From the NCBI GenBank assembly GCA_048884965.1, contig JBHLQH010000026.1, positions 1-47,045 on the forward strand: a DNA stretch of 47,045 bases. Direction: 5' to 3'. This DNA comes from Candidatus Thorarchaeota archaeon. GTDB taxonomy: Archaea; Asgardarchaeota; Thorarchaeia; Thorarchaeales; Thorarchaeaceae. The notes beneath the pieces are model-generated. The model saw only the letters and a program-made list of their open reading frames with translations. It had not been told where the DNA came from and made no database searches. The position numbers and the translations under genes are program-made. Below, piece by piece: positions 11,527 to 13,907 of the stretch. Within the stretch, counting starts at the first letter, position 1. The number at the start of each line of letters is the position of its first letter.

Positions 11527-13164
11527 ATGAGTCAACAGATACCTGTCGTCGTCTTGAGAGAAGACGCGGAGAGAACACGTGGCCGTGATGCTCAAAGAAA
11601 CAACATCATGGCAGCCATCGTCATCGCTGAAGCAGTCAAATCAGCATTAGGTCCAAAAGGAATGGACAAGATGCTCGTTGACAGCTTTGGAGATGTGACT
11701 GTTAGCAACGATGGTGCTACTATACTAAAAGAGATGGACGTAGCCCATCCAGCTGCAAAGATGGTCATTGAGGTAGCAAAGACGGTTGACGCAGAAGTGG
11801 GGGACGGAACTACTACTGCAGCAGTCCTGACCGGAAACCTGCTAAAACAAGCAGATACCTTGCTGGACCAGAAAATACATCCAACTACCATCATCAGTGG
11901 GTACAGAAAGGCAACTGAAAGGGCTTTGAAGGTTATTGATGACGTCGCTGAAAAAATCGATCCAGCAGATGCATCATTCAAGAAAGTGCTACTGGATGTA
12001 GCAATGACCTCAATGTCGAGCAAGTTCGTTTCGGACTCAAAGGAAGAACTAGCTAAGGTTGTGGTAGACGCTGTCTTGGCCGTTGCAAAGGAACGCGCAG
12101 GTGATGAGGATATCGATATGGAGAACATCCCTCGTCAAAAGCAGAAAGGAATGCCTGTCACAAGAACCGAACTTGTGAGGGGTATCGTTCTCGACAAGGA
12201 GATAGTTCATCCTGCAATGCCAAAGAAGATCGAAGGCGCAAAAATTGCTCTTCTTGAAGCACCAATCGAAATCACCAAAACCGAGTTCGATGCAAAGATC
12301 GCCATTTCAAATCCAGCGGCTATGCAGAATTTCCTAGATGAAGAGGAACGAATGCTTCGCAGCTTGACTGATAAGATTATCCAGTCAGGAGCCAATGTTG
12401 TCATCGCCCAGAAAGGAATTGATGATGTTGCACAGCATTTCCTAGCAAAGGCTGGTATTCTAGCTGTTCGTAGAATAAAGAAGTCTGATGTCGAACGTCT
12501 TCACAAGGCAACTGGTGCTGCAATCGTTTCAAAGATTCAGAACCTTACCAGTGCAGACCTTGGTAAGGCGAAGCTCGTTGAGCAACGCCAGATTGGAGAG
12601 GATAAGATGCTCTTCGTTGAAGGTACTCCGAAATCATCAGTGGTTACACTCCTTGTAAGAGGAGGGACAGATCACATCGTTGATGAAGTCGATAGAGCTC
12701 TAAACGATGCACTCTACGTCGTGCGAGATGTAGTCATTCATCCTCATATCACCTATGGCGGTGGTGCTCTAGCAAGCGAGATCGCGAAAGAACTAAGAGA
12801 CTACTCATCAAAGCTTGAAGGAAGAGAGCAATACGCAGTCAACTCCTTTGCTGAGGCAATCGAGGGACTTCCAGCTACTCTTGCTGAGAATGCTGGTCTT
12901 GATCCTATTGACATTATGGTGGATCTAAGGACAGCCCATGCAGATGGCAAAGTCACCTTCGGTGTCGACCTAGGAAAAGGTAAAGTAGGAGACATGAAGA
13001 GTGCTCATGTTGTCGAGTCAGCACTTGTCAACAAGCAAATCGTTATGTCTGCTGCAGAAGCTGCTCAGATGATCCTCAAGATCGATGATGTCATTAGCTC
13101 GAAGGGTTCAGGTGCAGGCGGTGGAATGCCTGGTGGTCCTGAAGGCGATATGGACGACGAATAG
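11527..13164 (+). CDS. ths: Thermosome (group II chaperonin) subunit
   Basis: LGPKGMDKML, NDGATIL, GDGTTT, GIVLDKE, YGGGA and a C-terminal Gly/Met-rich tail; GGAGG RBS. Confidence 0.98.
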   Translation: MSQQIPVVVLREDAERTRGRDAQRNNIMAAIVIAEAVKSALGPKGMDKMLVDSFGDVTVSNDGATILKEMDVAHPAAKMVIEVAKTVDAEVGDGTTTAAVLTGNLLKQADTLLDQKIHPTTIISGYRKATERALKVIDDVAEKIDPADASFKKVLLDVAMTSMSSKFVSDSKEELAKVVVDAVLAVAKERAGDEDIDMENIPRQKQKGMPVTRTELVRGIVLDKEIVHPAMPKKIEGAKIALLEAPIEITKTEFDAKIAISNPAAMQNFLDEEERMLRSLTDKIIQSGANVVIAQKGIDDVAQHFLAKAGILAVRRIKKSDVERLHKATGAAIVSKIQNLTSADLGKAKLVEQRQIGEDKMLFVEGTPKSSVVTLLVRGGTDHIVDEVDRALNDALYVVRDVVIHPHITYGGGALASEIAKELRDYSSKLEGREQYAVNSFAEAIEGLPATLAENAGLDPIDIMVDLRTAHADGKVTFGVDLGKGKVGDMKSAHVVESALVNKQIVMSAAEAAQMILKIDDVISSKGSGAGGGMPGGPEGDMDDE

Positions 13165-13200
13165 AAAGAGTCAAACGTACTAAAGTAGGTGTGCGAACTC

Positions 13201-13881
13201 ATGTCAAAAGACCCCGATAACGAAGTAAATGAAAGTGATGAAGAGGAGTTGGGAGACCTCACTCCTGAAGAAATCGCTGACATGCTAACAAACATACAAG
13301 GTGTTGGACCCAAGAATGCAGTAAAACTACTGGAAGAGGGTTATGACAACATCAGAAAAGTAGCAGAAGCGAATGCTGAAGAGCTAGCAGAAGCAATCTC
13401 TGGATTTAGTGTATCTAAAGCAGAGGACATCATAGATGAAGCAAAGGCTCTTCTTGAAGCAATTGAAGCCGGGGTTGTAGACGTAACTGGCAAAGCTAAG
13501 AAGTCAAAGAGGAAGAAGGCTCCAGAGCCAGACCCAGAAATTCACGAACTCCCACCGGGAGAAGCGATCGAGAAAGTCATTGAGAGACAAAGTCTCTCAA
13601 CAGGTCGTGAGAAGGAGAATGTTGACATGGGTATTCCAGCAGGAATGAAATGGCTTAGCAAGTTCGAAAAGGCTCGTATCATCGGCGCCCGCGCACTGCA
13701 AATCTCGATGGGCGCTCCAGTCCTCGTGGATATGACCAGTGCTCCCTCTGGGCTTTTTGCGCTAGCTGAGGTAGAACTAAGCTCCGGTGTTTTACCAATG
13801 ACTGTGCGAAGGACATTACCAACCGGAGAGTTCTTTGACATACCGTTAGCATCGTTGCTTAAACATACAAGACTGGACTAA
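13201..13881 (+). CDS. rpo6: RNA polymerase subunit Rpo6 (K/RPB6) with N-terminal acidic tail and (HhH)2 domain
   Basis: C-terminal LSKFEKARIIGARALQISMGAP...LPMTVRRTLP is the Rpo6/RPB6 signature; N-terminal LTNIQGVGPKNAVKLLEEGY is an HhH. ATG 13201 follows AGGTG. Confidence 0.92.
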   Translation: MSKDPDNEVNESDEEELGDLTPEEIADMLTNIQGVGPKNAVKLLEEGYDNIRKVAEANAEELAEAISGFSVSKAEDIIDEAKALLEAIEAGVVDVTGKAKKSKRKKAPEPDPEIHELPPGEAIEKVIERQSLSTGREKENVDMGIPAGMKWLSKFEKARIIGARALQISMGAPVLVDMTSAPSGLFALAEVELSSGVLPMTVRRTLPTGEFFDIPLASLLKHTRLD

Positions 13882-13907
13882 TTCGGTCCAGTCATTTCAT
13901 CTTTTTT
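13871..13907 (+). terminator. Hairpin plus U-tract terminator overlapping the rpo6 stop
   Basis: GACTGGAC-TAATTCG-GTCCAGTC then ATTTCATCTTTTTT. Confidence 0.55.

Follow-up and report, generated by a model that had tools for sequence, protein, structure and literature searches.

A tethered (HhH)2 arm on the RNA polymerase subunit Rpo6 of Thorarchaeaceae

The RNA polymerase subunit Rpo6 of a Thorarchaeaceae archaeon carries, ahead of its core, an N-terminal arm made of an acidic tail, a double helix-hairpin-helix domain, (HhH)2, and a charged tether. Its gene, rpoK/rpo6, lies on the forward strand of a stretch of 47,045 nucleotides (nt) of contig JBHLQH010000026.1 (GenBank assembly GCA_048884965.1), which we call the window. 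The initial annotation of this DNA had proposed that the polymerase carries a tethered arm, and this is borne out: the protein is the sole Rpo6 of the genome, the architecture is family-wide and bears the marks of purifying selection, and a structured (HhH)2 domain is predicted to sit on a disordered tether. As to what the arm does, the likeliest function, to which we would give an even chance, is a non-specific grip on duplex DNA, exerted by the (HhH)2 domain and the neighbouring lysine patch close to the cleft or entry channel.

The open reading frame (ORF) is uninterrupted; we read positions 13201-13881 on the + strand and found, as first reported, neither a stop nor a frameshift. A profile search of the genome (4.09 Mb, 95.7% complete) with PF01192 returned this gene and no other. 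Rpo6 is thus single copy, with no core-only paralogue, as a polymerase subunit should be.

Segment anatomy and conservation were taken from an alignment of 112 homologues, and the coordinates are collected in Table 1. All the motifs quoted in the initial annotation were found, and the acidic tail, the (HhH)2 module and the basic/Pro stretch do precede a canonical Rpo6 core, with Pfam and NCBIfam matches: HHH_5 (PF14520) at amino acids (aa) 27-82 (E 1.2e-13; 51.7 bits for a cut-off of 27), RNA_pol_Rpb6 (PF01192) at aa 150-196 (26.9 bits, cut-off 26), the NCBIfam RpoK equivalog NF002207 at aa 136-225 (81.6 bits, cut-off 71) and NF002208 (72.3 bits, cut-off 57). The extension is real, and its size, first put at about 150 residues, comes to about 135 ahead of the RpoK model.

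The acidic tail is weakly conserved and varies from 14 to 33 aa across the family, with a mean net charge of -6.7; in this protein, aa 1-24 form a disordered, strongly acidic N-terminus before the core, that is, a tail of the RPB6 type. The (HhH)2 domain, by contrast with the tail, has a length of 66 residues in every homologue (n=112), and its invariant or near-invariant positions gather at both hairpins and at the lysine residues after each (G34, V35, G36, P37, K38 and K42, the last lying just past hairpin 1 and invariant; G68, S70 and K73). Downstream, the basic/Pro stretch KAKKSKRKKAPEPDP covers aa 98-112 and begins with the Lys/Arg patch, whose net charge ranges from +5 to +8 across the family. 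It runs into a Pro/acidic segment (aa 107-140; mean net charge -4.3) that bears an APEP-x-P...HELP motif and counts exactly 34 residues in 112/112 homologues. The mean frequency of the top residue is 0.81 for aa 97-118, compared with 0.84 for the core and 0.70 for the HhH domain. Because aa 97-118 are conserved like the core and the length is fixed, the “flexible linker” first described is a fixed-length, sequence-constrained tether, not a passive spacer. The remainder, aa 141-226, has the canonical Rpb6 fold and a mean net charge of +4.5.

Table 1. Features of the rpoK/rpo6 locus and of related fusions (positions without a prefix are those of the window; prefixed locations are those of other contigs, loci and genomes).
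Feature	Location	Strand	Remarks
rpoK/rpo6, whole gene	13201..13881	+	226 aa; ATG 13201; TAA stop 13879-13881
Shine-Dalgarno-like AGGTG	13187..13191	+	9 nt before ATG
Internal AAGGAG, 9 nt, ATG (Met143)	13612..13629	+	Possible, non-conserved internal start
Acidic disordered N-terminal tail, aa 1-24	13201..13272	+	Includes DPDNEVNESDEEE
(HhH)2 domain, aa 25-90, five helices	13273..13470	+	HHH_5, AlphaFold2 model, profile and Foldseek matches
Hairpin 1 GVGPK, aa 34-38	13300..13314	+	G36, P37 invariant; G34, V35, K38 at least 90%
Hairpin 2 GFSVSK, aa 68-73	13402..13419	+	G68, S70, K73 invariant
Lys/Arg patch KAKKSKRKK, aa 98-106	13492..13518	+	K103, R104, K105 invariant
Pro/acidic motif APEPDPEIHELPP, aa 107-119	13519..13557	+	P112 invariant; A107, E109, P110, L117 at least 90%
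Remaining tether, aa 120-135	13558..13605	+	Fixed length; dN/dS
Rpo6/RpoK core, aa 136-226	13606..13878	+	NF002207, Foldseek
Terminator-like hairpin	13871..13893	+	Overlaps stop codon; 9-pair stem, then T-rich tail/T-run
Topoisomerase VI subunit A (Spo11-type), 790 aa	G000:C11:5831-8200 (L022:132-2501)	+	Two HHH_5 modules
Ribosomal protein L32e	G000:C16 (L025:110-1088)	-	N-terminal HHH_5 and Lys/Pro/Glu-rich linker
Ribosomal protein S25e	G000:C5 (L023:168-1166)	+	(EEKPKKV)n repeats and C-terminal HHH_5
Polytopic membrane protein, ~526 aa	G000:C13 (L024:1203-2780)	-	C-terminal HHH_5
C-terminal Rpo6-HhH fusion	L029:655-1227		Genome G247

Structure prediction agrees with this division. In a full-length AlphaFold2 model built on the family alignment, the core has a predicted local distance difference test score (pLDDT) of 85-93, aa 1-19 fall below 50, as a disordered tail would, and the tether is of low confidence apart from aa 111-120 (pLDDT 78). 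Modelled alone, the N-terminal domain is predicted to be a five-helix bundle (pLDDT 94, predicted template modelling score 0.83) that holds the two hairpins expected of an (HhH)2, GVGPK (G-h-G) and GFS (G-h-S). With Foldseek, the core superposes on chain F of Pol I, II and III and on Sulfolobus chain K (RpoK) with a root-mean-square deviation of 1.4-1.5 A over about 72 residues (probability 1.00), with 42% identity to yeast Rpb6. For the N-domain, a profile search of the PDB placed the (HhH)2 repeats of topoisomerase V (Topo V; 8e-14) and the RadA N-terminal domain (1e-11) on top, haloarchaeal L32e, Pol X/beta, Rad51 and NusA AR2 (5e-5) ranking lower; by Foldseek, the closest structures are those of Topo V, NusA AR1/AR2 and the RadA/Rad51 N-terminal domains (40-42% identity), with template modelling (TM) scores of 0.79 for NusA AR1 (1wcl) and 0.70 for NusA AR2 (1wcn).

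An internal ATG (Met143, in MGIPAG) is preceded, 9 nt upstream, by a Shine-Dalgarno-like AAGGAG in this genome. Were it the start, the functional product would be a core-only Rpo6 and the extension dispensable or rarely translated, a scenario that we consider extremely unlikely. Indeed, the N-terminal ATG (MS-x-[DEG]-[PSG]... start) is preceded by AGGTG or GGTG at 6-10 nt in 12/12 related loci, whereas the position of Met143 is occupied by Met in 6/11 related loci and by Leu in the other 5/11 (TTG, CTG and CTT codons, of which CTG and CTT are non-start codons); the GGAG ahead of it is found in the nearest relatives only and is a by-product of Glu-Lys-Glu codons. Pairwise ratios of non-synonymous to synonymous substitution rates (dN/dS) are as low in the HhH domain (0.05-0.13) and the tether (0-0.07) as in the core (0.04-0.12), those of the tail ranging from 0.09 to 1.2, and more than 110 homologues show no frame disruption in the extension. 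Given the conserved AGGTG, the non-conserved internal Met and the low dN/dS, all of them signals read from the sequences, the arm appears firmly to be translated and under purifying selection. An internal start as a conserved product, which the initial annotation had named as a possible refutation of its reading, was rejected on the same grounds, Met143 being non-conserved and the upstream AGGTG conserved; this particular genome may make a minor core-only isoform.

The survey of Rpo6 across Asgard archaea that had been called for disposes of the other suspicion, namely a fusion absent from close relatives. Searching the database at E<=0.001 yielded 300 homologues; among the best 120 of these 300, nearly all are 215-236 aa long with HHH_5, most also have a recorded Rpb6 match, and the source labels read Thorarchaeota RpoK, with a few “Promethearchaeota” and one “Hodarchaeota”. 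When 301 genomes of the phylum were searched, full-length matches were confined to Thorarchaeaceae, where about 70 of the 76 genomes have the fusion, and 28 other Asgard families matched the full-length query through the core only. Four of the six exceptions (G016, G176, G194 and G260) gave zero Rpo6 in the PF01192 search, from which the other two (G197 and G263) were left out; because no Rpo6 at all was found in these four, they are assembly gaps and not core-only forms. With the architecture present on hundreds of independent contigs, an assembly artefact was rejected. At a larger scale, an N-terminal HhH followed by an Rpo6 core occurs in just three clusters among 1.84 billion representatives at 50% identity. 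Metagenomic variants P0015 and P0016 (320-325 aa) have tandem arms, that is, the cassette of HhH and basic patch twice. A few short “arm-only” proteins (P0132, P0133, P0139 and P0193) were considered as free-standing arms and discarded; they break in or just past the Lys-rich stretch and look like frameshifted or truncated gene calls instead.

The sister family, represented by one genome (G112; L014:1273-1734), has an Rpo6 of 153 aa with a 65-aa acidic tail and neither HhH nor basic patch. Since that family has the tail alone, the ancestor of one Thorarchaeota family appears to have gained the cassette of HhH and basic patch inside an acidic tail that it already had. The initial annotation had also thought the arm perhaps relevant to the origin of the RPB6 tail, and this part has to be given up: neither the sister family nor any of the 28 other Asgard families sampled yielded the HhH, and, being by all appearances derived within one Thorarchaeota family, the module would not be ancestral to RPB6 and does not explain where its tail comes from. 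As a separate observation, the 65-aa tail of G112 is purely acidic with embedded Phe, a composition reminiscent of the RPB6 N-terminal tail.

Thorarchaeaceae are not the only Asgard archaea with an enlarged Rpo6. In a second family, the order is reversed: the Rpo6 core comes first, and a linker, either Lys-rich or acidic, joins it to one or two HHH_5 at the C-terminus (G247; P0126, P0167 and P0270-P0273). This lineage is a relative of Asgard family f14 (67-71% core identity), and in the family of G247 the C-terminal fusion is found in part only, most genomes being core-only. We considered a common origin of the N- and C-terminal HhH modules and rejected it, as BLASTP gave no alignment between them. 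Because the order is reversed, the HhH modules do not align and most relatives in the family are core-only, the C-terminal (HhH)2 on Rpo6 is, as far as such comparisons tell, an independent fusion event. Several lineages show differing extensions, and Asgard Rpo6 is for this reason a recurrent accretion site. Other cases were met along the way: P0126 has a weak whole-protein score for PF03118, the bacterial alpha C-terminal domain (alpha-CTD) family (32.4 bits); in G235, of the same family as G247 (L033:1294-2871), the Rpo6 core (aa 135-184 by Pfam) lies within a 525-aa ORF whose flanks, about 130 aa N-terminal and about 300 aa C-terminal, are without Pfam match, the C-terminal one ending in a Cys-rich motif, the start being provisional; and the Helarchaeota RpoK P0163 (172 aa) has a histone-H1-like Lys-rich N-terminal tail and then an acidic stretch.

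Arms of the same kind are found on other proteins of the genome. HHH_5 modules with long Lys/Glu/Pro linkers occur on four more proteins, namely subunit A of topoisomerase VI (Topo VI-A), the ribosomal proteins L32e and S25e, and a membrane protein. Topo VI-A is made of a Lys-rich N-terminal tail of about 160 aa (KKETP-type), two HHH_5, a charged linker of about 200 aa, TP6A_N and Toprim; the Rpo6 module has its closest paralogue in the first of these HHH_5 (42% identity). Its frame is 685-954 aa long in 5/5 Thorarchaeaceae genomes versus 391-479 aa in 18 other Asgard families (41 genomes sampled), and for L32e, where length only was compared, frames are of 269-390 aa in Thorarchaeaceae versus 146-305 aa elsewhere. 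The arms on Topo VI-A, L32e and S25e favour a generic nucleic-acid tether. Two further points can be recorded here: the genome encodes a further Top6A paralogue, a short one of about 352 aa with 29% identity, and the membrane part of the polytopic protein matches no Pfam family, a DNA-binding-type module being odd in such a place.

In the architecture known from Pol II, Rpo6/Rpb6 sits at the clamp base, close to the stalk base. The Rpo6 core studied here would likewise assemble at the clamp base, its place in archaeal and eukaryotic polymerases at large; from there, the Pro/acidic tether, acting like a ruler with some 45-50 residues between domain and core, would keep the arm near the cleft or the DNA entry channel, where the (HhH)2 domain and the lysine patch (+7) could hold the phosphate backbone of duplex DNA with no sequence preference. 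Such a grip may help the polymerase to stay on DNA while it searches for promoters, forms open complexes or elongates. Before DNA is loaded, the acidic tail might fill the vacant cleft or cover the lysine patch, in the manner of the RPB6 tail in Pol II. In complexes of Topo V with DNA, the (HhH)2 domains touch the phosphate backbone only (PMC9489208). For RPB6, the acidic N-terminal tail has been observed lying in the cleft of Pol II in a position that clashes with template DNA (PMC10237034), so an N-terminal arm on Rpo6 can reach the path of the DNA. At the end of the entry channel, Rpo13 holds downstream double-stranded DNA through its Lys-rich C-terminus in a non-specific manner (PMC3479171), and no Rpo13 was detected in this genome. 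HhH or Sso7d domains tethered to polymerases improve salt tolerance and performance in vitro (PMC8313265, PMC12630135), linkers of about 30 residues being optimal in one of these two studies. On the side of the sequences, the invariant residues lie at the hairpins, which are the phosphate-contacting elements of HhH proteins; the invariant basic patch seems to have arrived together with the HhH, the sister-family Rpo6 having neither; the two appear to have been duplicated in tandem as one cassette in P0015 and P0016, and the C-terminal fusion probably again makes use of a Lys-rich linker. All of this is consistent with a DNA grip.

One has to keep in mind that several observations pull the other way. 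The (HhH)2 domain is itself negatively charged (net -8 in this protein, family mean -3.4), and its model superposes best on NusA AR1, an acidic (HhH)2 that binds proteins and not DNA; the Gly and Pro of the hairpins also serve the fold, so that their conservation is not specific to DNA contact; HhH2 arms on the ribosomal proteins L32e and S25e suit a duplex-DNA role poorly; and the strongly conserved Pro/acidic motif, left unexplained by a DNA grip, suggests a specific protein docking site. The arm could then be a protein-recruitment module whose acidic (HhH)2 and tail bind a basic partner (transcription factor, histone tail, helicase or repair protein), on the model of NusA AR1/AR2 with lambda N and alpha-CTD, of the RPB6 tail with TFIIH p62 or of the RAD51 N-terminal domain with the H4 tail; we find this, the main rival to a DNA grip, rather unlikely, and yet serious enough to be weighed. 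Domain and tail are both net negative, the top structural matches include, besides NusA AR1/AR2 (TM 0.70-0.79), the RAD51 N-terminal lobe with a histone H4 tail (8xbw), the Pro/acidic motif resembles a short linear docking motif, and the RPB6 N-terminal tail is documented to bind a factor, TFIIH p62 (PMC8754651). However, hairpin 1 retains the canonical G-h-G-x-K with invariant flanking lysines, the nearest relatives by sequence are the DNA-binding RadA and Topo V (1e-11 to 8e-14) and not NusA (5e-5), the invariant +7 patch adjoins the domain, a similar HhH module sits on unrelated nucleic-acid enzymes of this genome, and no candidate partner was identified.

The ligand could also be RNA or a non-duplex nucleic acid (for instance the RNA emerging close to the stalk or exit channel, R-loops, single-stranded DNA), with effects on termination, pausing or co-transcriptional processing. 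This fits the closeness of Rpo6 to the stalk base in Pol II architecture and the presence of HhH2 on L32e and S25e in this genome, as well as on haloarchaeal L32e, where RNA is the obvious ligand; it is nevertheless quite improbable, as those (HhH)2 domains that have been characterised attach to the backbone of duplex DNA (PMC9489208), the N-domain has DNA enzymes as its nearest relatives, and no finding here specifically favours RNA. A more speculative idea, in which we place little faith, takes the Rpo6 arm as one of several (HhH)2 “grappling arms” found across the family on Lys-rich tethers (Rpo6, Topo VI-A, L32e, S25e) that might also pair HhH2-to-HhH2, as NusA-AR2 does with alpha-CTD and XPF with ERCC1. 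If it were true, an Asgard archaeon would have its transcription tied physically, through arm pairing, to the removal of supercoils and to translation, and the independent C-terminal Rpo6-HhH2 fusion would mark Rpo6 as a preferred docking platform.

To come back to the DNA grip, archaeal and eukaryotic polymerases are thought to handle DNA via separate factors (TBP, TFB, TFE, Spt4/5); a polymerase with a built-in grip on duplex DNA would, if confirmed, be the natural counterpart of both alpha-CTD and the engineered processivity fusions, and of all archaea, the group in which the arm is found is the nearest to eukaryotes. The nearest parallels to such a grip are Rpo13 in Sulfolobus, bacterial alpha-CTD and the man-made fusions of HhH or Sso7d with polymerases. 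The addition of HhH to Rpo6 twice, at opposite termini, together with the arms of Topo VI-A, suggests that Rpo6 is a favoured place for added DNA contacts and that Thorarchaeaceae generally need more nucleic-acid tethering. The closest relatives in sequence and fold, the RadA/Rad51 N-terminal (HhH)2 and the Topo V repeats, belong to recombinases and topoisomerases; HhH-polymerase chimeras are man-made, whereas the Thorarchaeota module is natural and sits on a multisubunit RNA polymerase. NusA AR1/AR2 resemble the present domain in being an acidic (HhH)2 on a tether to the transcription machinery; they are carried, though, by an elongation factor, they bind proteins and auto-inhibit NusA, and the sequence similarity is weak. 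Rpo13 of Sulfolobales, which contacts DNA, is also a small, lineage-specific element of an archaeal polymerase, but it forms a subunit of its own, has a helix-turn-helix fold and is not homologous to the Rpo6 arm.

The comparison with bacterial alpha-CTD, made from the start, holds as a functional analogy only. Both would be small helical domains of the HhH type borne on a flexible linker by a polymerase assembly subunit, alpha-CTD contacting DNA and activators; it is attached, though, to another subunit and terminus, reads UP-element minor grooves and is present in two copies. Membership of the alpha-CTD family was rejected, since the Pfam search gave no PF03118 match to this protein at E<=1 and alpha-CTD was absent from the top 50 Foldseek matches of the N-domain. 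As for eukaryotic RPB6, the core is homologous and both proteins have an acidic disordered N-terminus, but the RPB6 tail has no folded domain or basic patch, unlike the Thorarchaeota arm. The likeness of the acidic tails seems to be compositional only; such sequences are of low complexity, so no alignable similarity is expected. To our knowledge, TFIIH p62 has no archaeal counterpart.

The fusion itself is already known, from a published study and from a precomputed Pfam domain-pair annotation. Shematorova and Shpakovski (Int J Mol Sci 2026;27:4679; PMC13257274), who worked on the same protein family, reported the long N-terminal sequence of Thorarchaeota Rpo6 and its folded element in AlphaFold3, and cited a paper on the HhH fold. 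Their article covers the arm in one sentence, without analysis of its distribution, selection, start site or origin, and is silent on the basic patch and tether, the tandem arms, the C-terminal fusion and the Topo VI-A, L32e and S25e fusions. It also qualifies, as do the genomes examined here, the view, held in the initial annotation, that archaeal Rpo6 is normally core-only: this is partly right, and many Asgard Rpo6 have charged N-terminal tails (PMC13257274). What is added here is the convergent C-terminal fusion, the tandem arms, a date for the insertion from the state of the sister family, the conservation of the start signal and the distribution of the Topo VI-A arm.

As to the surroundings of the gene, rpoK is preceded by a thermosome gene (11527-13164), with a gap of 36 nt, and followed by genes for an MgtC/DUF4010 membrane protein and a histidyl-tRNA synthetase. 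The order thermosome then rpoK is also seen in the sister-family genome G112, and thermosome and rpoK side by side suggest a conserved gene pair or co-transcription. A sigma-70 promoter scan being meaningless for an archaeon, we retained from it the terminator-like hairpin at the end of rpoK alone (Table 1).

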